From sequence record PZ151149.1: a stretch of DNA of 64,000 bases; one strand, given 5' to 3'. The DNA is from a phage. The notes beneath the pieces are model-generated. The model did no database searches. It was not told where the DNA came from and saw only the letters and a list, made by a program, of their open reading frames with translations. Of this stretch, positions 1,089 to 63,291 are shown in pieces. Positions within the stretch are counted from its first letter, which is position 1; each line of letters begins with the position of its first letter. The position numbers and the translations under genes were made by a program.

Positions 1089-3140
1089 TTACATTTTAAA
1101 TTTATCCGGCATTGCGTCTACAGATACCAGATCAGCGATAAGCTGACGTAGAGTTGCCTTATCTGCTTTCTTACGTTCGGTTTTAGCTTCGCTAATGAAG
1201 CTGGAGAAAGACAGGTCAGAAGCAGGTTTAACAACACCTTCACGGATGAATGCATCACCGTCCGCGATCATCTCGCCAGATTCTTGTAATGCTGCCAGTT
1301 CATTTTTGTTCATAATATGTGCCTCAATGTAATAAGTTTCTTGTGAATCCGTCGATGCCGTAGCACGAGTTACCGTATCAAAGGATAACACAACACCGCG
1401 AGGAAGTAAAATCTCGCATTCTTTGTAAGCAAATGCTTTGTTACCTACTGGCAATACAGGGATGTTTTCCGCGCCAGCAATGGAGAAAGCAACATTAGCG
1501 CCACCTTCACCGCGAGAGCCAGCCATAGAATCAACACCAGCAACGGCACTAGCCACGTTTGCATTCCAGCCGCCAAAAATGTTAGGTGCAAGGGAAGTGC
1601 TCACATAGTTTTTAAAGTAAAACGCTTTTTGCTTACGTGCAGTTTCCCACATTTGCGACCGGAAGTCCATACCACGATACAGAATAGTACCCGGATCAAG
1701 TTTAACGCCATAGTTGGAGAAGGCATTATCCAGTGCATCACACATCTTGACCAATTCTTCTGGATCTGCGATGCCTTCAAACTCTTCCAGCTTACGGTCG
1801 GTTAGGAAGTTGTTCATATTGATGTATGCTGCATCGGCATATTCGCTCAACACAAAACCTTCCGCGCCTGGCAGATCAAGATCAATATCTGCCATCATTT
1901 CACCCATGTTGCTAGCAATTGCTTCAAACATACCGGAAGCAACATTACGTAGGGCATCGGTTTTGATCTGGGTGATATGACTACGCAGCATTTCAGCTTT
2001 TACATCTGCTGGCATAGACTGGTCTACTCGATCCATTGCCAGGGCGGTGATCTTGTTTTCGAATACTTCCTCGCTCATGATTTCTTTTAAGCGTTTGATT
2101 GATGCTGCGATAACTTCCGCAGACAACGGATCATATTGATCCTGAACTTTTACCAGTTCGCTTACTGCGTATTTTGCATCGGCTTCGCTTTCAAAAATAG
2201 TACGCATGAAACCATAGCGAGTGATAATATCACTTGTCCAGTCATTCAGAGAACGGGCGGTTGAACGTTCTAAGGCTTGACGGTCAATCAGAGTATTAAA
2301 CTGTTTCTTAGGTTCTGCTTCGGTGATATCTTCTTCCGGTTTAAGATTAATTTTTTCTGGATGATTCACATAGTCGCTGTTATAGGTCGCTTGAGTTTTC
2401 AGCATTTCTTCTTTAGTCAAACGAGATTTAGCCGCTACGCGTTGTTCTGCTTCCGCGTTTCGTTCTTCTTCTGACACAAGACTAGCCGCATATGCTTCAT
2501 CTTTAGTCAGAGATTCGCCAGTAGCTTTAGATACCCAGCGATCACCTAAATCACTTTCTACTTTAGTGAACAAGGATTCATCAAGTTTAATCCCTTTAAT
2601 CTTATCAATCGCCATCCCGCGACGTTTGACAACAACTAAAGCGATCTTTTTGCTGGTCATTACTTCCTGCTGGAATACTTCAAACTTCGGTGTACGACGC
2701 ACCAAACGCTCTATAACGCGCTTAACCAGTTCGGTCTTACCTTTCATGCGGGATACGTTAAAACGGAACATAACAGCGTCTAATTGCGCTTTACGTGCTG
2801 TTTCCATAACCACATCAAAAGCACTTGCCATAACTGCAATCGGGTTATCGCCTAGACCATTTTTAAGCTGTACAATACGACCGCTTTTGTTCATTTCGCA
2901 CAGTACAACATGTGCGGTCTTGTCACCCATACGAATGATTTTAGGTGTTTTGTTGGTGAAGTTACAAAGACGGACAATCACATCTTTATCGCGTGTCTGT
3001 ACTGCAAAAAGCTGTTTAGGATTCTGCTTAGGCTTTAAGCACTGTACCGGGGCAATACTACCAAAGTTTTCTTCCTCTTCCGTCAACAGCCATTTCTCGA
3101 AAGATTCAATCATTAGATCGTCGATTTCTAAGTTAAACAT
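1089..3140 (-). CDS. alt: ADP-ribosyltransferase Alt (683 aa)
   Basis: Length matches T4 Alt (682 aa); ART signature YRG ... YVSTS ... ECEILLPRG; SD GAGGA before ATG. Confidence 0.8.
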   Translation of the reverse strand: MFNLEIDDLMIESFEKWLLTEEEENFGSIAPVQCLKPKQNPKQLFAVQTRDKDVIVRLCNFTNKTPKIIRMGDKTAHVVLCEMNKSGRIVQLKNGLGDNPIAVMASAFDVVMETARKAQLDAVMFRFNVSRMKGKTELVKRVIERLVRRTPKFEVFQQEVMTSKKIALVVVKRRGMAIDKIKGIKLDESLFTKVESDLGDRWVSKATGESLTKDEAYAASLVSEEERNAEAEQRVAAKSRLTKEEMLKTQATYNSDYVNHPEKINLKPEEDITEAEPKKQFNTLIDRQALERSTARSLNDWTSDIITRYGFMRTIFESEADAKYAVSELVKVQDQYDPLSAEVIAASIKRLKEIMSEEVFENKITALAMDRVDQSMPADVKAEMLRSHITQIKTDALRNVASGMFEAIASNMGEMMADIDLDLPGAEGFVLSEYADAAYINMNNFLTDRKLEEFEGIADPEELVKMCDALDNAFSNYGVKLDPGTILYRGMDFRSQMWETARKQKAFYFKNYVSTSLAPNIFGGWNANVASAVAGVDSMAGSRGEGGANVAFSIAGAENIPVLPVGNKAFAYKECEILLPRGVVLSFDTVTRATASTDSQETYYIEAHIMNKNELAALQESGEMIADGDAFIREGVVKPASDLSFSSFISEAKTERKKADKATLRQLIADLVSVDAMPDKFKM

Positions 3141-6740: not shown

Positions 6741-7217
6741 TTATTTTTCTTGATGCTCGCGCTCGTACTTTTCGAAATAAAATTCTACTGGCTGATCGTG
6801 GATTGAAAGCAAGCCAAAGCGTTTAGCCGCACGTAATCCCATGTTACGTTGAATGTACTTCTGGAAGTTCTCGCGTATACACTTACGCCAGTATTCTAAG
6901 CCCATACAGCTTTTATAAAGATTGCATTGCACACACGCCGGATTCATGTTATCAAGTATATCATGTTCCGGTTTATGCATTCCTACAACCTTATACTTCC
7001 ACGATCCATCATCATTACGGGCAATTCGTCCATTTTCATCATAGACTACCTTTGAGCGTCGCAATACTGGTTTGATGTGGTCTGCGTGCCAGCGATCCCC
7101 TAGTTCCTCGCCACAATAGGCACAACGTCCACCATATTTCATTTTCAGGATCTGGCGTTGCTCTTTCTTTGACAATTTTTTAGGTTTAGGGGCTTTCGCC
7201 CCTTCATTATCACACAT
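6741..7217 (-). CDS. HNH endonuclease (158 aa)
   Basis: CAYCGEEL ... HADHIKP ... N ... CVQCN: His-Me finger with two CxxC pairs; overlaps ligase stop. Confidence 0.6.
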   Translation of the reverse strand: MCDNEGAKAPKPKKLSKKEQRQILKMKYGGRCAYCGEELGDRWHADHIKPVLRRSKVVYDENGRIARNDDGSWKYKVVGMHKPEHDILDNMNPACVQCNLYKSCMGLEYWRKCIRENFQKYIQRNMGLRAAKRFGLLSIHDQPVEFYFEKYEREHQEK

Positions 7218-8706
7218 CGAATACCTCTTTTACTGTATTTGCAGTGGTCTTGTCGTAGCGAATACGTTTGATGATCGGGAGAAATAAAGAGAACTCCGGT
7301 TCATCTTCTTTACGTGATTTGCTTCGAATGTACCCGTTGCATGTCATCTCAATGACTTTTCCAATCAGGTTATGACGGTCAGCCCATAACATTTCTCGGT
7401 CGAGTTCATTTCGACGATCGAACGGAATTACACGTTCAATACCATCATCACCTTTTTCGGTTGTGGTGTCGGTTAATCCCGATCCGGTGTTAGTCATCAT
7501 TCGTCCGCACGCACTACGGACAGTAAAACCGCCTACCTTATTAGGATCTTTACTATGCGGATATACATCAACAATTTCAGCGTCGAAGTCAATCACTTCT
7601 TTAAATTTAACCTGGTCTTTACTGCGACGATCTTCAAATACACCATGTAAATTTTTAAGGATAATACCTTCTAAGCCCATGTTTACATAGCGATGATATA
7701 CTTCGCGAGCTTCATCGATATTGTTAACTACAGTATTTTCGATTATCTGAACACGAGGATCGTTAAGTTCTTCAACAATCTGTTTTAGTTCTTCGAATCG
7801 ATCTTTATATTGCTTCGTGGCTTTCTCGTTTCCGTAATACACATCACGGTCGATAACATCCCAGACAGTATAAACAATACATTGGGCTTCTTCTTTTGGA
7901 ATAGTTCCTTTAAGTGATTTGTTGAGGATACCATTTCCGGTCTGACGGTCTGCAACAACGGATTCTTTTACTGCTTCCGCTACTGGCGTTAATGGCATTT
8001 CCTCTTCTTCAAATATCCATGACAGAGTACCATCATAAACGCTCTCAACGAAGTTCTGCGCTGGTGTTTGCGAAAGGGTAGGCATATATACCAATTCGCC
8101 ATCTAGAACAATTCCACGGCCTCGTAGACGCTCTAAAACCGCAAACAAATCATCAAGTCCCTGATAGGTATTACCTGAACGGGTATAGATTGCTAATGTT
8201 TCCCCGTCAATATCAGCCATACCACGAGCACCATCGCTTTTAAGTTGTGCATACGCCGGATACTTGATATTAGCAATAGTCTTATCAGAACATGACGATG
8301 CAAGGTGACACGGTTGCTGGGGGATCAGTTTCTTCCACACCTTGTTTGCAGTGGTAGCGGAACAACCACACTCCAGATCACGATTCAGGACCATCATTGC
8401 AACTTTAGCATCATCCTCTGACAAGCAAGTCAGAGTATCGGTAACTAGCTGTAATGCTGCATTACCAGTTATTTGACGCGTGGCAAGTTTATTTTTAAAG
8501 ACCTGTAATGCGCCAGATAAAGACAATACAGACGAATAGCGCGATGGTTTATCGTATTTCTTTACGCCGAACGTAACCTGTTTGCAATATGCCAGATAAA
8601 AGCATTCTTTAAGCGTTTCATTGCTTGCAGATTCTTTCAGGATCTTTTCTTTCAGCGATGTTTTGTCGGTCGCTGCAAGCTGGTTAATGATATTAAGAAT
8701 TGACAT
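7210..8706 (-). CDS. 30: ATP-dependent DNA ligase (T4 gene 30 type)
   Basis: About 498 aa; adenylation motif QLKSDGARG (KxDG); ATG at 8706 with GAGGTGA SD (track start 8712 is GTG). Confidence 0.85.
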   Translation of the reverse strand: MSILNIINQLAATDKTSLKEKILKESASNETLKECFYLAYCKQVTFGVKKYDKPSRYSSVLSLSGALQVFKNKLATRQITGNAALQLVTDTLTCLSEDDAKVAMMVLNRDLECGCSATTANKVWKKLIPQQPCHLASSCSDKTIANIKYPAYAQLKSDGARGMADIDGETLAIYTRSGNTYQGLDDLFAVLERLRGRGIVLDGELVYMPTLSQTPAQNFVESVYDGTLSWIFEEEEMPLTPVAEAVKESVVADRQTGNGILNKSLKGTIPKEEAQCIVYTVWDVIDRDVYYGNEKATKQYKDRFEELKQIVEELNDPRVQIIENTVVNNIDEAREVYHRYVNMGLEGIILKNLHGVFEDRRSKDQVKFKEVIDFDAEIVDVYPHSKDPNKVGGFTVRSACGRMMTNTGSGLTDTTTEKGDDGIERVIPFDRRNELDREMLWADRHNLIGKVIEMTCNGYIRSKSRKEDEPEFSLFLPIIKRIRYDKTTANTVKEVFDV

Positions 8707-9172
8707 TTTCACCTCGTTTTGTTAAACGTTCACGAATATCATTGAGGATACTACAAAATTCCGATTCAGTCAATATAGTCTTTAACGGATCAGTTCCACC
8801 TATGCTATGACGTAATTTCTTATTTCCTGTAGCGAGTAATGCTTTACAAAATTCTGGGTTATTCCGTGCCATCGTAACAAATGCCAGATGTACCAGTCTG
8901 TAATAATGCTCACTCATTCGATGAATCTGGCGACCCTGAAAATATAACATGTGATTCTCAATCTTTTCAGTTCTTCCGGTTCTTTTTGCTTTGCCACCGT
9001 GCATCAAAAAGATTTCTCTTTGTCTCTGAGGGTTCTTAAATCTTAGCCCCTGTAAAAATCCTTCTGTGCTGTTAATATCACAACCAAATAGACGGAATGG
9101 TCTTTTATTGAAATTGCTCAATTCACCCGATGGATAAGGTCCACCCGCATAGATATCAATTTCAGAAGTCAT
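8693..9172 (-). CDS. NADAR (YbiA/DUF1768)-like protein, putative ADP-ribose N-glycosidase (159 aa)
   Basis: GELSNFNKRPFRLFG ... STEGFLQGLRF ... ALLATG resembles recalled YbiA motifs GDFSNF ... SEHYFQAQKF ... ALLATA. Confidence 0.55.
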   Translation of the reverse strand: MTSEIDIYAGGPYPSGELSNFNKRPFRLFGCDINSTEGFLQGLRFKNPQRQREIFLMHGGKAKRTGRTEKIENHMLYFQGRQIHRMSEHYYRLVHLAFVTMARNNPEFCKALLATGNKKLRHSIGGTDPLKTILTESEFCSILNDIRERLTKRGENVNS

Positions 9173-9378
9173 TGAAACTAATCTCGCTAATCAGAGAGAA
9201 CGGATCATAATCGTCATTAGGAATATCGATAGTAATCGAATGAGGATTTACCCATACACCAAACTGGTCTTCATCGGTGAATACTTCGTTATGGATTTCG
9301 TGGATGTTTACATTCATAGTTTTCATAATAAAATTCCTTAATAATCAATAACTTACAAAATCATATAGCCAAAATATA

Positions 9379-9397
9379 GGCGGGATTATTTCCCGCC
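9379..9397 (-). terminator. hairpin terminator downstream of gene 31
   Basis: GGCGGGA-TTATT-TCCCGCC followed on minus strand by UAUAUUUUGG. Confidence 0.5.
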
Positions 9398-57806: not shown

Positions 57807-57836
57807 AGTTTGTCAGAACTAAAAGGAGATCACAAA

Positions 57837-58766
57837 ATGAACTATAAACGTATTTATGATAACCTGATTGAACGTGCTAAGACTAGAACTATCGACGGAT
57901 ATACAGAAAAGCATCACATCATACCACGTTGTATGAATGGAAGCGATGATGATAGCAATCTAGTTAGACTCACCCCAGAGGAACATTACATTGCTCACCT
58001 TCTGTTAGTTAAGATTTACCCAGATAACAGTAAATTGGTTTATGCTGCAAATATGATGTGCGTTTCTTCTGATTCACATAATGGAGAAAGACAGTCAAAT
58101 AAACGTCATGGTTGGTTGCGTAGAAAAATGGCTGAGGCACATAGTAAAAGAATCCGCGATAGAATGGAGAACGATCCTGAATATAGAGCTAAGGTTTCGG
58201 AATGGGCTAGAAAAATGGGTAAAGCCATGAAAGGAGTTAAGCGAGGACCGGAATTTAGCAGAAAGTTGGCAGAAAGAAACAGAAATACCGTGATGAAAGA
58301 AGAAACTAAACGTAAAATCGGGGAAGCCAACAAAGGAAGGAAACGTACAGAAGAATATAAAAGAAAACATAGTGAGCGGTATAAGGGTGAAGGTAATCCG
58401 ATGTATGGTAAACGAGGAAAGGACCATCCGGCATATGGTACTAAACCGTGGAACAACCAAACATCATTTGTTGAGCAGAAAGCATGGTGGCGGTTCGCTG
58501 GCATGTTCTATGACTGGTATCAGATGGATATTGACCGTGGGAAACATAAACGCCACGGTCATAAAAGAATGCTTGATGAATTGGGTTTTGTTGGTTGGCG
58601 AGAAAAAGAGCCAGCCGCAGCAAGACGATCAATTGAAATGTTTGCTAAAGGCTGGAATCCTTATGAAGACCAAGAATGGTTAGATTATATTAATACCCGC
58701 TTTCCAAACGACGATAGTTTTCCGCGTTCTTCAACATATACAAAACAAACAAATCCTTTGCAGTAA
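57837..58766 (+). CDS. HNH homing endonuclease (309 aa) on opposite strand
   Basis: KHHIIPRCMNGSDDDSNLVRLTPEEHYIAH: HNH core; lysine/arginine-rich C-terminal half; only plus-strand gene in a minus-strand block. Confidence 0.7.
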   Translation: MNYKRIYDNLIERAKTRTIDGYTEKHHIIPRCMNGSDDDSNLVRLTPEEHYIAHLLLVKIYPDNSKLVYAANMMCVSSDSHNGERQSNKRHGWLRRKMAEAHSKRIRDRMENDPEYRAKVSEWARKMGKAMKGVKRGPEFSRKLAERNRNTVMKEETKRKIGEANKGRKRTEEYKRKHSERYKGEGNPMYGKRGKDHPAYGTKPWNNQTSFVEQKAWWRFAGMFYDWYQMDIDRGKHKRHGHKRMLDELGFVGWREKEPAAARRSIEMFAKGWNPYEDQEWLDYINTRFPNDDSFPRSSTYTKQTNPLQ

Positions 58767-59222: not shown

Positions 59223-60251
59223 TTAAAATTTACAATATTTCATAAACCGCATTTTAGCCATCAGACCTTGTACGGTGTTTTCTTTGATGTATTCCATGAT
59301 CTGGTCGCGTGTAGCTCCCTCGTCCTGAATCATGGCGTTAACGTCTTTAGAATGCCACGGGCAACGGTCCCACAAAACAATCTTTTCCCCTGCATTGATA
59401 AACTTTTCCAGTCGGTGCATTGTATCGGCAGACCGTGGTTCGGCGTCAAGTACAAACACTCGCTGGTCTGGGAAAGGGATTTCATCTAATCCCAAAGTAC
59501 CGCCAGTAATTGCACACCCGTTATCAATAAACAATGAATCGATCGGACCTTCTAAGAAATACACTGGTTTACTCGGATCAGCACGTTCAAGACCGTAGAC
59601 CTTACTCGCTAACTCATGAGTTTTAATCGTCATATATTTGGTCTTTCCGTAATCCTTTCTCAACGCTCGCCCCTGAATGGATTCTATCTTGTTCTCGCGG
59701 TTAAAGATAGGAATCACTAAACGCGGTTCAGGTTGTGGATTCTTGAAGGTATCAGCTTTAATGTGATTTGCTACCTTTTGCCATTCTCTCGTGAAATACA
59801 GAAGATCCCATTTATCGTGAGGGATGCAACGATCACTGACATACTTTATTATAGGATGATTAGCCGGAAGAGTATCTAATCTCTCGCAGAAAGGCAATGT
59901 TTGCACTTTCTTAATCTCCGGCTTTTCTACCTTTTTCAGTGGCTTAAACGTGGTGTTCTTGTGGTCGCCTTGTTCCTTCCGTCGTTCCATAAGCCATTCC
60001 CTGAATAGGTCCGGCTTATATTGTTTAAGAAATTCACCTAACGGCTGATTGTAGTTACAGTTGAAACAACCACAACGCAAACTATCTTTGTAGGTATAGA
60101 TACGGAATCGCGCTTGAGTATGATTTTTCTTTGAGTCACCGCAGATCGGACAACTACAGACCAGCGTAAATGAGCTAGTATGCAACCGTTTAAAATTTCG
60201 TTCGCCGTATATGGCTTTTTCCGCTATTTCATAATCTGCGTAGTAAATCAT
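59223..60251 (-). CDS. 61: DNA primase
   Basis: 342 aa (same as T4 gp61); N-terminal zinc ribbon CSCPICGDS ... CGCFNCNY; TOPRIM-like core. Confidence 0.8.
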   Translation of the reverse strand: MIYYADYEIAEKAIYGERNFKRLHTSSFTLVCSCPICGDSKKNHTQARFRIYTYKDSLRCGCFNCNYNQPLGEFLKQYKPDLFREWLMERRKEQGDHKNTTFKPLKKVEKPEIKKVQTLPFCERLDTLPANHPIIKYVSDRCIPHDKWDLLYFTREWQKVANHIKADTFKNPQPEPRLVIPIFNRENKIESIQGRALRKDYGKTKYMTIKTHELASKVYGLERADPSKPVYFLEGPIDSLFIDNGCAITGGTLGLDEIPFPDQRVFVLDAEPRSADTMHRLEKFINAGEKIVLWDRCPWHSKDVNAMIQDEGATRDQIMEYIKENTVQGLMAKMRFMKYCKF

Positions 60252-60611: not shown

Positions 60612-60788
60612 CTAAGCACCGTCTTTCTCCTTCTTGCGTTTTTCTTTACCCACTACGCTAGGTCCACGATTGGTAATAGATCCGCTCGTTTCCCCTGCTG
60701 CGATCTTCTCAGGATTGCCGCCAGCATCGCCAGCGGTCATATCTTCTTTGAGTTTATTTTCTTCAACAAACTGTTTAAAGCCAATCAT
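60612..60788 (-). CDS. hypothetical small protein (58 aa)
   Basis: Below track cutoff; ATG at 60788 overlapping stop of upstream gene; glycine- and lysine-rich. Confidence 0.3.
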   Translation of the reverse strand: MIGFKQFVEENKLKEDMTAGDAGGNPEKIAAGETSGSITNRGPSVVGKEKRKKEKDGA

Positions 60789-61162
60789 AGAATAATCTCT
60801 TTCAGTAGGTCAACAATCTGGTCTTTCGTCAGTTTATCCTGATTCTCTACAATCTTGATAACACAAGCATTAACATCTTTTCGAGTAACGCGGGAGATCG
60901 TTTTAATACGATGAAACGGTTCGTAGAAATATACTGCTTCATTATAGAGCGCAGCAATTTTTCGACGCATTTGATCTTTATCTGACAAGAAAACAAGTGC
61001 TGTTTTATGACCTTCTACACCCGCCACGTTATATAGTTCAGCAACACCCCAGCGACCTTCCGGTTCAATCATTCCGGCGTGTTTACCGTCGATAAAAATA
61101 AGAATATCTCCGTTGAATGCGGTTTTGAATGCTACATCTTCCGGCGTAATCATATTTTTCAT
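60785..61162 (-). CDS. hypothetical protein (125 aa)
   Basis: ORF between helicase 41 and primase 61 (61.x region). Confidence 0.5.
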   Translation of the reverse strand: MKNMITPEDVAFKTAFNGDILIFIDGKHAGMIEPEGRWGVAELYNVAGVEGHKTALVFLSDKDQMRRKIAALYNEAVYFYEPFHRIKTISRVTRKDVNACVIKIVENQDKLTKDQIVDLLKEIIL

Positions 61163-61192
61163 AATATAGTCTCCTTAGAGTTTCATTATAGA

Positions 61193-61828
61193 TCAAGCGA
61201 ATGTAGAAAGCAAATGTTTTGTTTCTTTCAGTTGTCGTTCAAGATCTTTGCGTTTCTCTTTAAGTTGCATTTTAGCATTATTTCGCTGTTTTTCAACATC
61301 TTTATCAATACTCTTATTCCAGTTATCAATATCAGAATAAGTTGGCATACCCAATTCTAGACCTAATGCGGTTGGATACAAGGTAACAGTCCATAAACCG
61401 CTAATCTTCTTAAATAGGTCGGGGTGTAGTGTACTATCTACATCTTCCGGTGTCAACTCTTTTTCTTCTTTCAGTGGTGGGATCTCGTCATATGGTTCCA
61501 GTGCATTTACTTTAATGTCAGATACCTCATCAAAGAATCCGCGTACATCCGCAGGAAATACACAAGCAATTTCCCAACCGTGATCACGCAGAGAAGTAAT
61601 ATTTTTCACTCCCCCACCATGTGTGATGATTGATGTGACATTGCCATCAAGGTCCACCGAATTTACGAGAAATGGCTTATCGTCTGTCAGATCATTATAA
61701 AACTGTGCTTCGGCTGTAGTCATCTCCAGAAACAGATCTCGGATCGGACGACCATCAGGTGCGTTACCTTCCTTGAGAGTATAAAAGCGACTTACGATCC
61801 ATTTTGGCGGTAAAGCATTAGCGATCAT
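61193..61828 (-). CDS. hypothetical protein (211 aa)
   Basis: ATG at 61828 with AGGAGA SD; C-terminal coiled coil; 61.x region. Confidence 0.5.
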   Translation of the reverse strand: MIANALPPKWIVSRFYTLKEGNAPDGRPIRDLFLEMTTAEAQFYNDLTDDKPFLVNSVDLDGNVTSIITHGGGVKNITSLRDHGWEIACVFPADVRGFFDEVSDIKVNALEPYDEIPPLKEEKELTPEDVDSTLHPDLFKKISGLWTVTLYPTALGLELGMPTYSDIDNWNKSIDKDVEKQRNNAKMQLKEKRKDLERQLKETKHLLSTFA

Positions 61829-61878: not shown

Positions 61879-63291
61879 TTAGAAAGTCATGTTATTTGCT
61901 AGCTCGTCGAGTTTTTCTCTTTTCTCGGCTTGCTGTGCGCTTTGTGGTTTAACTTGTGCATTCTCCTGATCTGCGATCTGGTTTGGTACTTCATACCAAC
62001 GCTGATTGCCTTTCTTCACACCAACGTTAAACCGTGAATAATAGTTCTTATCACCGTAACGAGACTTGATCTGCTTCATGAGTTGGACGCCCATTTTAGC
62101 CAGGTCTTCGGTTTCGATAACACCCAACATAAAGTCGGCAGTAGCCGGAAGACCTGCTGATTCAGCGGTATCACTCATGTTAAGGTCGGAAGCATCCCAA
62201 CCCGCGCGGGTAGTCTGTGCCGCAGTCCAACCAACAACATCCCACTTAACAAAAAATCCTCGCAGTTCTTCCGCAATCGCCTTAACTAGTGTGTAACTAT
62301 TTTCAGAGTATACACGCAAGCGAGACGATGCGCAAATCCCCAGATAGTCAACAATCACAACATCAGGTTTAAACTGTTTCTTGAGTCGCAATTCATTCAT
62401 TAACGCCTCAAAGTGATTGGAGTTTGCGCCACCCGTCGGATACTGCTTGATCATCAATTTTCCAACCGGACGATCTCCGATCTTCTTATTCTTAACACGC
62501 TTCATACGTGCGGAATATTCCGCAAAAGAAACATTACCATTATCCAATTCATCTAATGTAATGTCAAGCAAGTTTGCGTCGATACGTTTGGCTACGACAT
62601 GCTCTGCCATCTCCATTGAGATATACAATACATCATAACCACATTCCATATAATCCGCAGCAAGAGAACACAAGCCCAATGATTTGCCAACGTTTACACC
62701 AGCAAGCAACACATTTAGCGTTTTTCTTTCCGCACCTCCTTTCGTGATTTTATTCAACATCGGCAGCTTAAACGGGATCTTATTCGCCTTAGTCTGATAT
62801 AGCAAGAATCGTTTTTCAAAGTCATTAAACCAGTCATGACCTACATCAGAATCAAACGTAATGGATAGTGCTTCCTGCATGATCTCAGGAATAGCACCCT
62901 CACTCGGCAATTTCTTATTCTGTTTCTCTTTTGGTAGTTGTGCGTTCGCCTGAATCTCTAGCGCCCGTGACATTGCATTATACATAGCGCGGTCACGAAT
63001 AAATTTTTCGGTTTCCTTCATTAACCAATCAAGGTCTTCCGGCGTATTCTCCAGCGAATCGAGAAGAGTTTTAGCCCCTTCATATGTTGTCTGATTGCCT
63101 CTCTCCTTGTCTAAAGCAATCTGTAATGCAGTTGGCGTAGGAATATTGGAATATTCGTCTACGTGCTTTTTAATCAGCTTATAAATCAGTTTTTCTTCGT
63201 CTTCGGTGAAGTAGTCCGCTTTAAGATGAGGCCATACATTCGTAAAGAATGCGCCATTGTAAATCAACTGTGAAAAGATAGTTTTAATCAT
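61879..63291 (-). CDS. 41: replicative DnaB-like helicase
   Basis: 470 aa (T4 gp41 475 aa); Walker A GVNVGKS; RecA-like core. Confidence 0.85.
   Translation of the reverse strand: MIKTIFSQLIYNGAFFTNVWPHLKADYFTEDEEKLIYKLIKKHVDEYSNIPTPTALQIALDKERGNQTTYEGAKTLLDSLENTPEDLDWLMKETEKFIRDRAMYNAMSRALEIQANAQLPKEKQNKKLPSEGAIPEIMQEALSITFDSDVGHDWFNDFEKRFLLYQTKANKIPFKLPMLNKITKGGAERKTLNVLLAGVNVGKSLGLCSLAADYMECGYDVLYISMEMAEHVVAKRIDANLLDITLDELDNGNVSFAEYSARMKRVKNKKIGDRPVGKLMIKQYPTGGANSNHFEALMNELRLKKQFKPDVVIVDYLGICASSRLRVYSENSYTLVKAIAEELRGFFVKWDVVGWTAAQTTRAGWDASDLNMSDTAESAGLPATADFMLGVIETEDLAKMGVQLMKQIKSRYGDKNYYSRFNVGVKKGNQRWYEVPNQIADQENAQVKPQSAQQAEKREKLDELANNMTF

Follow-up and report, generated by a model that had tools for sequence, protein, structure and literature searches.

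Background

The product of T4 gene 30.3, AdfN, is a DNA ADP-ribosylglycohydrolase with specificity for guanine, both necessary and sufficient against DarTG1 (PMC11825919, PMC11125620). It strips ADP-ribose from DarT1-modified DNA, and host DarT1 alone accounts for the phenotype of T4 lacking adfN (PMC11825919). In vitro, the T4 protein hydrolyses guanosine-ADPr (G-ADPr) on both DNA and RNA (PMC11125620, PMC11833690, PMC12945103). It does not counter the thymidine-modifying DarT2 and is absent from the listed enzymes that reverse cytidine-ADPr (PMC11825919, PMC12945103, PMC11833690). Full activity of AdfN(T4) depends on a T-even factor (PMC11825919). The C-terminal helix is required as well: the RB69 allele carries a frameshift, the helix is missing and this AdfN is non-functional (PMC11825919).

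The gp30.3 proteins are known as the 'phage NADAR' family (PMC11125620, PMC12945103). Their clade is defined by a His at the position where YbiA has Glu and DarG1 has Asp (PMC11543638, PMC11125620, PMC11825919). YbiA itself is the product of a host gene of the LexA regulon and is not a DarT1 antitoxin (PMC11125620). AdfN(Bas32) and AdfN(Bas60) work without a phage cofactor. They were acquired independently and are members of other NADAR branches (archaeal-like; non-DarT bacterial), whereas the protein described here belongs to the T4/gp30.3 branch (PF08010).

Gene 30.3 of the window

The window, i.e. the whole stretch of 64,000 nucleotides of phage DNA that was analysed, contains the RB49-type (Krischvirus) copy of T4 gene 30.3 (Table 1). 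A preliminary description had placed this ORF in the NADAR/YbiA family on account of three motifs. Its coordinates are exact and all three motifs are present in the translation (GELSNF, residues 16–21; STEGFLQGLRF, 35–45; ALLATG, 111–116). The match to PF08010 (Phage_30_3) is far beyond chance (E=6.5e-38, 130.1 bits with a cut-off of 36) and spans positions 2–138 of the 138 profile positions. phrog_652 is matched with E=2.5e-45, and T4 gp30.3 aligns end to end with 38% identity (E=8e-29). The observation is correct, yet its explanation is already published; the only feature that goes beyond it is a natural Lys-to-Arg change in the active site.

Table 1. Positions of the features discussed, in the numbering of the window.
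Feature	Coordinates	Strand	Basis or remark
Alt-like paralogue of the Alt catalytic domain, 274 aa	186..1010	minus	PF03496 E=4.5e-16; phrog_15144
Alt orthologue, 683 aa, R-S-ExE ADP-ribosyltransferase	1089..3140	minus	collinear with T4 Alt, 665 residues, E=2e-61
Gene 30, ATP-dependent DNA ligase	7210..8706	minus	start codon ATG at 8706; 14-nt overlap with the end of 30.3
Gene 30.3 orthologue, phage-type NADAR (AdfN-like)	8693..9172	minus	ATG start to stop, 159 aa
C-terminal α-helix of the NADAR, residues 136–157	8702..8767	minus	DSSP on the AF2 model; intact
His122, codon CAT, in place of the third catalytic acid	8807..8809	minus	alignments
Arg44, codon AGA, at the site of the phosphate-coordinating Lys	9041..9043	minus	alignments
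Glu37, codon GAA, counterpart of catalytic T4 AdfN E36	9062..9064	minus	alignments
54-aa ORF, no assigned function	9162..9326	minus	directly upstream of 30.3, overlaps its start by 11 nt
Terminator-like hairpin and T-run	9379..9397	minus	separates gene 31 from the block of 54-aa ORF, 30.3 and ligase; consensus match only
ModB-like ADP-ribosyltransferase candidate, 167 aa	57214..57717	minus	phrog_832 'RNA polymerase ADP-ribosylase' E=1e-20; adjoins srd

The general NADAR profile PF08719 scores below threshold (16.7 bits with a gathering score of 35.1, E=0.0089), and at the level of sequence profiles the proposed family came close to failing. Other PF08010 members reach 27 bits at most with this profile. 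The NCBIfam model 'NADAR family anti-phage protein' is far below threshold (14.5 bits, cut-off 240), and PADLOC gave no match for four proteins of the window (the NADAR, the two small ADP-ribosyltransferases and the 54-aa ORF). Because the match to PF08719 is weak, membership of the NADAR superfamily rests on the fold and on the literature.

Among the near-identical Krischvirus records listed, the gene is labelled 'hypothetical protein'. The genus stands outside the subfamily Tevenvirinae.

Predicted structure

An AF2 model of the protein, calculated from an alignment of 12 sequences, has a pLDDT of 93.6 and a pTM of 0.88. In a Foldseek search of the PDB with this model, three solved NADARs are the only significant matches and the next-best chain has E>2. 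YbiA ranks first (2b3w; E=1.4e-6, TM 0.66, identity 18%), followed by the Phytophthora NADAR with ADP-ribose (8bau; E=7.6e-4, TM 0.63) and the Geobacter DarG1-type NADAR (8bat; E=1.1e-2, TM 0.60, identity 13%), each with a probability of 1.00. Among PDB sequences, the family profile reaches YbiA alone (E=0.0057). This alignment pairs the two Glu residues, places position 44 opposite the lysine of QAQK and matches the GxxSNF and sxE...Q..K motifs. Judging from the model, the protein adopts the NADAR fold. Together with the published status of gp30.3 as a 'phage NADAR' (PMC11125620, PMC12945103), the fold match settles superfamily membership, and the family assignment of the preliminary description survives the weak PF08719 score because the match holds at the level of structure.

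The protein is a core-only NADAR, as is T4 gp30.3. Its domain begins at residue 4, and the alignment with T4 gp30.3 extends to the C-terminal end of the T4 protein. The two proteins also share PF08010, collinearity over the full length, Glu, His and the C-terminal helix; they differ in that K43 of T4 is Arg44 in the window copy. DarG1 (E. coli C7; Geobacter/Trichlorobacter lovleyi, 8BAT) has the same fold and the same E...7 residues...K/R spacing of the ribose- and phosphate-binding residues. By analogy, the chemistry is presumed to be the same, i.e. hydrolysis of guanine-N2-ADP-ribose. Unlike DarG1, the window NADAR lacks the N-terminal extension (159 compared with about 230 aa) and has His in place of the catalytic Asp (D171 in E. 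coli C7). YbiA from E. coli (2B3W) is the closest structural relative and its motifs can be aligned, but its Glu in the last strand is replaced by His122.

Active site and sequence conservation

Glu37 corresponds to E43 of the Phytophthora NADAR and E88 of the E. coli C7 NADAR, residues with a catalytic role (PMC11825919, PMC11543638). It is invariant in alignment A1, and of 167 homologous domains that were aligned, 161 have Glu at this site. His122 is likewise invariant in alignment A1 (His in 159/167 domains), and the surrounding segment KLRHSIGG aligns with VLKHSIAS of T4. At position 44, 153 of the 167 domains have Lys and 9 have Arg, which is thus a minority variant. Its counterparts in the alignments are K43 of T4, the QAQK lysine of YbiA and K95 of E. 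coli C7. At least three separate lineages combine Arg44 with an intact Glu and His. In Krischvirus this form is fixed, and two or more further gp30.3 lineages have it as well.

The replacement of Lys by Arg at this position is chemically conservative for phosphate binding. The K95R mutant of the E. coli C7 NADAR was still capable of hydrolysis in vitro, yet it no longer rescued cells from DarT1 in vivo (PMC11543638). In T4 AdfN, both E36A and K43A weakened activity (PMC11825919). Partial rescue remains with K43A (PMC11825919), so that proteins of the phage clade do not depend on the Lys in an all-or-none manner.

The syntenic relative P0002/L005 encodes a NADAR with 69% identity that retains E37, R44 and H122. 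Comparison of the two genes gives a pN of 0.18 and a pS of 0.69, and the adjacent ligase gene is similar; as dS is saturated in this pair, dN/dS is qualitative only. By these values the gene is under purifying selection. Arg44, which is kept across the pair under this selection, is accordingly a maintained state. Furthermore, the gene is intact in 60 phage records with at least 95% identity, and coverage of the query is 80% or more in 1502 of the 1510 phage matches. The Krischvirus UPWr_E1 encodes a protein with 100% identity.

Gene order

The order of genes in the window is cd-31.1-31-orf54-30.3-30; as in T4, 30.3 has its place between genes 31 and 30. In T4, 30.1 and 30.2 stand between 30.3 and 30, whereas in the window 30.3 abuts the ligase gene. 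The near-identical phage KFS-EC is annotated with the same overlap of ligase and 30.3. No match to T4 30.1, 30.2 or 30.4 was found anywhere in the window. There is no DarT gene beside 30.3, which is flanked by the 54-aa ORF and the DNA ligase gene; the NADAR is therefore an orphan, unlike DarG1.

The 54-aa ORF matches phrog_15277 (E=3e-40) and is kept at the same position in L005 with 45% amino-acid identity. It is likely co-translated with 30.3. T4 gp30.4, the occupant of this position in T4, was considered as its counterpart and no alignment was found. The scan with the terminator consensus yielded two sites in comparison with 1.6 expected in shuffles. A promoter scan around 30.3 was no better than chance (10 sites, 8.5 expected in shuffled sequence), and the window gave no hits when scanned for tRNA genes and Rfam families.

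AdfA (61.2) is the other known anti-DarT factor of T4. A tblastn search of the whole window with this protein gave no match. The 61-41 interval, which is covered by the window, differs from T4 in having no AdfA homologue, and the ORF found in its place (61193..61828, 211 aa) has no similarity to AdfA.

Proposed role

Counter-defence against DarT-type systems had been one of two explanations offered for the gene, and it is supported: exactly this role was demonstrated by experiment for the T4 orthologue AdfN (PMC11825919). The product of the window gene, the orthologue of AdfN and a minimal single-domain NADAR, probably acts as an anti-DarT1 'orphan antitoxin'. This reading is founded on the family, the orthology and synteny with T4 30.3, the NADAR fold, the retained Glu, His and C-terminal helix, and the purifying selection. 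Enzymatic activity, guanine specificity and the role against DarTG1 would be those of the T4 protein, from whose literature they are carried over. By the same analogy, the Arg44 allele presumably performs the function of the T4 protein.

According to the proposed mechanism, 30.3 would be made during infection from the compact block of 54-aa ORF, 30.3 and ligase gene. A host toxin of the DarT1 type would ADP-ribosylate the N2 of guanine in replicating phage DNA. The NADAR would bind the diphosphate of the ADP-ribose via Arg44, in place of the usual Lys, and the distal ribose via Glu37 and His122. Cleavage of the N-glycosidic bond would restore unmodified guanine, so that phage replication could proceed.

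Several observations count against this role. The protein shares only 38% identity with its tested T4 counterpart, and AdfN(T4) needs a T-even factor for full activity, while Krischvirus lies outside Tevenvirinae. K95R of E. coli C7 lost the rescue from DarT1 in vivo, and the T4 neighbours 30.1, 30.2 and 30.4 are absent. Additionally, the NADAR match at sequence level is below threshold and PADLOC found no match. A literature search for Krischvirus together with DarTG found nothing.

The value of the assignment lies chiefly in annotation, as the 'hypothetical protein' of the Krischvirus records becomes an AdfN-like phage NADAR; the current picture of phage-host conflicts over ADP-ribosylation is unchanged. 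The name bears on predicting how therapeutic or typing Krischvirus phages plate on E. coli carrying DarTG1. A homologue from outside Tevenvirinae could aid the search for the helper factor of AdfN(T4), and the natural Lys-to-Arg allele bears on the question why the bacterial K95R protein works in vitro and not in cells.

Instead of a silent variant, the Arg44 form may represent a distinct functional subtype that acts on another linkage or toxin, such as RNA guanosine-ADPr, or is independent of a helper or served by another one. This is unlikely. One possibility within it, by analogy with E. coli C7 K95R, is that efficacy against DarT1 in vivo has been lost. Another is that the protein may be independent of the phage helper factor or may use a different one, for which the 54-aa ORF would be a candidate. 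If the subtype existed, sensitivity to DarTG1 would differ between Krischvirus and T-even phages despite an intact adfN.

It is also quite improbable that the Arg44 NADAR has been tuned to a different ADP-ribose linkage or toxin (e.g. RNA guanosine-ADPr, or a further ART defence directed at guanine or another base) and is ineffective against DarT1 in vivo. The behaviour of K95R (PMC11543638), the maintenance of Arg44 across the 69%-identical pair under purifying selection and the recurrence of Arg at this position in several lineages are consistent with such a shift. NADARs also hydrolyse RNA G-ADPr and some act on C-ADPr (PMC12945103, PMC11833690), and the authors of the T4 study speculate that some phage NADARs counter defences that ADP-ribosylate RNA (PMC11825919). 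However, exchange of Lys for Arg preserves the chemistry of phosphate binding, every other active-site marker is unchanged and partial rescue persists in T4 even with K43A (PMC11825919). Positive evidence for another substrate is nil.

ADP-ribosyltransferases of the window

Three ADP-ribosyltransferases (ARTs) had been named in the preliminary description as possible partners of the NADAR, and all three are real according to their Pfam, phrog and T4 matches. Alt matches PF03496 and phrog_802 (E=7e-180). The Alt-like paralogue carries LYRG, STS and ECE motifs and has 37% identity to residues 487–593 of the Alt of the window. The third ART is the sole Mod match in the window. It has 33% identity to T4 ModB (E=8e-11) and is also similar to T4 ModA (E=2e-6), in an alignment that pairs the ExE motifs (DERE/DEQE); a Pfam search with this ORF gave no match. 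Its position next to srd mirrors that of modA/modB in T4. These three genes are regarded as context only.

The preliminary description took the ARTs and the NADAR for a writer/eraser pair. Guanine is the target of gp30.3-type NADARs, while the R-S-ExE enzymes are similar to ARTs that modify arginine in proteins; the idea of a pair is therefore unsupported, and self-protection, the other explanation offered for the gene, is without supporting evidence. That the NADAR reverses or limits the marks set by the phage's own Alt, Alt-like and Mod enzymes, for self-protection or reversibility, is very unlikely, even with three ART genes in the same 64-kb window. The R-S-E class does include guanine modifiers (pierisin, ScARP, Scabin; PMC12945103), and a DNA-directed activity of the 274-aa Alt-like paralogue is therefore formally possible. 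Its nearest solved relatives, which are weak matches, are the arginine-specific protein ARTs Tre1, SpvB and Vis, and T4 Alt, ModA and ModB are annotated as acting on proteins (RNA polymerase alpha, S1, EF-Tu). The activity of phage NADARs, on the other hand, has been demonstrated on guanosine-ADPr in nucleic acids only, and the T4 phenotype is explained by host DarT1 (PMC11825919). Furthermore, the ART genes belong to other transcription units and none adjoins 30.3; the distance is about 5.5 kb or more for the two Alt-type genes and about 48 kb for the Mod-like one. In metagenomic homologues, gp30.3-type NADARs are fused to Metallophos, alpha/beta-hydrolase, LRR, a tandem NADAR or unannotated domains, and to no recognisable ART.

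Other possible functions

An N-glycosidase for metabolite repair, with a small-molecule ribosylamine instead of nucleic acid as its substrate, like some YbiA/COG3236 NADARs (hydrolysis of riboflavin intermediates), would agree with YbiA as the best structural match and with the roles of some NADARs in riboflavin synthesis (PMC12945103, PMC11825919), but is extremely improbable: His replaces the Glu of the last strand that defines YbiA, the T4 orthologue acts on DNA with a clear anti-DarT1 phenotype (PMC11825919), and the neighbours of 30.3 are ligase, gp31, cd and pseT, with riboflavin genes absent nearby. Just as implausible is an inactive or decaying remnant comparable to the frameshifted AdfN of RB69; dead alleles do occur in T4-like phages (PMC11825919) and of the two positions probed by mutation in T4 AdfN, one differs here (K to R), but the ORF has its full length and its C-terminal helix, the fold is predicted with confidence, the comparison with the diverged relative gives a pN far lower than pS, and the gene is intact in the 60 near-identical phage genomes and covered to 80% or more in nearly all phage matches.

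Assignment of the 30.3 gene product

The preliminary description had located a NADAR-like ORF, which lies on the minus strand. Its coordinates are exact and the motifs are found in the translation (GELSNF, residues 16–21; STEGFLQGLRF, 35–45; ALLATG, 111–116). The Pfam family PF08010 (Phage_30_3, 'bacteriophage protein GP30.3') matches the product over the entire profile (E=6.5e-38) and phrog_652 matches with E=2.5e-45; thus, the ORF is no chance reading frame. T4 gp30.3 (152 aa) aligns end to end with 38% identity (E=8e-29), as does the T2 counterpart. By tblastn the family is present in 1510 phage records, with at least 80% query coverage in 1502 of them, and an exhaustive search of representatives yielded 975 clusters at E≤1e-3.

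The NADAR profile PF08719, the check suggested in the preliminary description, scores only 16.7 bits (gathering score 35.1, E=0.0089), and neither the NCBIfam NADAR anti-phage model nor PADLOC returned anything useful for the protein. Judged by sequence profiles alone, the NADAR assignment would be no more than a hint. A 12-sequence alignment gave a confident AlphaFold2 model (mean pLDDT 93.6, pTM 0.88). Foldseek against the PDB returned YbiA as best match (2b3w, E=1.4e-6, TM 0.66), followed by the Phytophthora NADAR with ADP-ribose (8bau, E=7.6e-4, TM 0.63) and the DarT1-associated NADAR of Geobacter lovleyi (8bat, E=1.1e-2, TM 0.60), each with probability 1.00; all other chains had E>2. The family profile also reaches YbiA at the sequence level (E=0.0057); in that alignment the two Glu residues coincide and position 44 falls on the lysine of the YbiA motif QAQK. 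Together, these matches establish membership of the NADAR superfamily at the level of the modelled fold. The proposed assignment, sub-threshold by PF08719, is therefore borne out by the match of the model to the solved NADAR structures. The identification is correct, and the gene is of an already characterised kind.

The gp30.3 proteins form the recognised 'phage NADAR' family, whose hallmark is a His in place of the YbiA Glu or DarG1 Asp (PMC11543638, PMC11125620, PMC12945103). In the work of Johannesman et al. (Nat Commun 2025), T4/T2 gene 30.3 turned out to encode AdfN, a protein both necessary and sufficient for DarTG1 resistance, which in vitro frees DarT1-modified DNA of ADP-ribose (PMC11825919). 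E36A, K43A or loss of the C-terminal helix weakens AdfN, and the natural RB69 allele is truncated and lacks this helix. AdfN neither binds DarT1 nor counters the thymidine-modifying DarT2, and it is fully active only during Tevenvirinae infection, which implies a helper factor (PMC11825919). Guanosine-ADPr on RNA is likewise a substrate of T4 phage NADAR (PMC11833690), which is absent from the list of cytidine-ADPr-reversing enzymes (PMC12945103). The counter-defence against DarT-type systems suggested in the preliminary description thus equals the published function of the T4 orthologue (PMC11825919). The window protein is probably an AdfN-type orphan NADAR, which would de-ADP-ribosylate guanines in phage DNA and thereby overcome DarT1.

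Active site

The residue counts cover 167 aligned domains, taken from 150 diverse representatives and close relatives. Glu37, equivalent to T4 E36, is Glu in 161 of the 167 domains and His122 is His in 159. The C-terminal helix (residues 136–157) is intact in the model. Compared with the 69%-identical protein of the syntenic relative L005, pN is 0.18 and pS 0.69, comparable to the adjacent ligase gene; since synonymous sites are saturated, this comparison is qualitative only. By most markers the window copy would be functional.

The sole departure is Arg44, which replaces the phosphate-coordinating Lys (K43 in T4, K50 in Phytophthora, K95 in E. coli C7). This position is Lys in 153 domains and Arg in nine. 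Arg44 is kept in the L005 relative, and among Glu/His-intact sequences Arg has at least three separate occurrences, each in a group whose closest relatives otherwise have Lys. The substitution matters because the same change in E. coli C7 NADAR, K95R (Schuller et al.), retained guanine-ADPr hydrolysis in vitro yet lost the ability to rescue cells from DarT1 (PMC11543638). On the other side, partial rescue remains with T4 K43A (PMC11825919), and selection clearly maintains the Arg state. The Arg44 allele is taken to be active, its predicted potency against DarT1 in vivo being the main uncertainty.

Genomic context

The 4-kb neighbourhood is 97–98% identical to about 60 Krischvirus phages (RB49 group) of Escherichia and Shigella; this genus lies within Straboviridae but outside the subfamily Tevenvirinae. 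The 30.3 protein is 100% identical in UPWr_E1 and 98.7% in KFS-EC. Between 31.1 and 31, KFS-EC has an extra HNH gene, which is missing here; this explains why neighbourhood matches split in two pieces.

The minus-strand order is cd, 31.1-like (WYL_2/SH3), gene 31, a terminator-like hairpin, a 54-aa ORF, 30.3 and gene 30 (DNA ligase). Overlaps of 11 nt between the 54-aa ORF and the start of 30.3, and of 14 nt between the end of 30.3 and the ligase gene, which begins with the ATG at 8706, make these three genes a compact block. Transcripts may end or be attenuated at the hairpin, ahead of the block, and downstream of it there is no convincing sigma-70-type promoter. T4 shares the overall gene order but has three further genes, 30.4 upstream of 30.3 and the pair 30.2 and 30.1 separating 30.3 from gene 30; none of the three has a match anywhere in the window. 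The 54-aa ORF occupies the position of T4 30.4 without similarity to it, and is kept in place in L005 (4847..5011, 45% amino-acid identity). Its product is, speculatively, a candidate NADAR partner.

Features of the 30.3, ADP-ribosyltransferase (ART) and primase-helicase regions
Feature	Position	Strand	Remarks
Alt-like paralogue, 274 aa	186..1010	minus	catalytic domain only; LYRG, STS, ECE motifs intact
Alt	1089..3140	minus	collinear with T4 Alt, E=2e-61
HNH endonuclease ORF, 158 aa	6741..7217	minus	directly downstream of ligase gene, overlapping its end
30.3 orthologue, 159 aa	8693..9172	minus	ATG-initiated ORF
Arg44 codon, AGA	9041..9043	minus	site of phosphate-coordinating Lys
54-aa ORF, phrog_15277	9162..9326	minus	overlaps 30.3 start
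Terminator-like hairpin	9379..9397	minus	G+C-rich, then T-run; directly after gene 31
ModB-like ART, 167 aa	57214..57717	minus	phrog_832 1e-20, ModB 8e-11, ModA 2e-6
Homing endonuclease ORF, phrog_655	57810..58766	plus	between ModB-like ORF and gene 56 homologue
Primase	59223..60251		flanks interval 60621..61828 (-)
T4 61.1 homologue	60788..60621	minus	
125-aa ORF, phrog_16174	60785..61162	minus	
211-aa ORF, phrog_16187	61193..61828	minus	
Helicase gp41	61879..63291		flanks interval 60621..61828 (-)

ADP-ribosyltransferases

All three ARTs of the preliminary description are real, as judged by collinearity with T4 Alt, the Alt catalytic domain of the paralogue and the phrog_832, ModB and ModA matches. 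The paralogue is free-standing just downstream of alt, where T4 has no more than small N-terminal pieces of alt (alt.-1 to alt.-3). The ModB-like ORF adjoins srd, like modA/modB in T4. It has no Pfam match, but alignments with ModA and ModB give LYRG, MSFT and DERE as candidates for the R-S-ExE motifs. The window has no second Mod-like match, whereas T4 has two such genes; the ORF is also shorter than T4 ModA and ModB (200 and 207 aa).

A functional writer/eraser pairing of the NADAR with these ARTs finds no support. The ARTs are homologues of enzymes annotated as protein-modifying, and the nearest solved relatives of the Alt-like paralogue, though weak matches, are arginine-specific, whereas phage NADAR activity was shown on guanosine in nucleic acids. 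Moreover, no ART gene adjoins 30.3, and none of the recognisable fusion partners of gp30.3-type NADARs elsewhere is an ART. In metagenomic homologues the recognisable partners comprise BspA-type LRRs, an alpha/beta hydrolase (UPF0227), a calcineurin-like phosphoesterase and further NADAR copies; a recurrent N-terminal domain of ~310 aa is unannotated, and in the tandem NADAR repeats one copy has lost the catalytic Glu or His (fusion and tandem homologues: P0017, P0019, P0021, P0038, P0052, P0059, P0063, P0070, P0078, P0130). NADAR and ARTs occur together simply as parts of the standard T4-like gene set.

The primase-gp41 interval

No homologue of T4 61.2 (AdfA), sp or dmd is present in the primase-gp41 interval; the known second anti-DarT factor, AdfA, is hence missing from its usual slot. 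The remaining interest of the window 30.3 gene is narrow: a genus that does not belong to Tevenvirinae naturally carries an active-site allele with Arg for Lys, the genes that neighbour 30.3 in T4 are absent, and the covered 61-41 interval has no AdfA homologue. Such an allele could inform on potency, specificity or the helper factor.

The 'T4 phage NADAR (gp30.3)' construct of a 2024 in vitro study is given as residues 1–208 (PMC11125620), whereas RefSeq gp30.3 of T4 (L003, 8308..8766) has 152 aa; T4 gp61.2 coincidentally has 208 aa.
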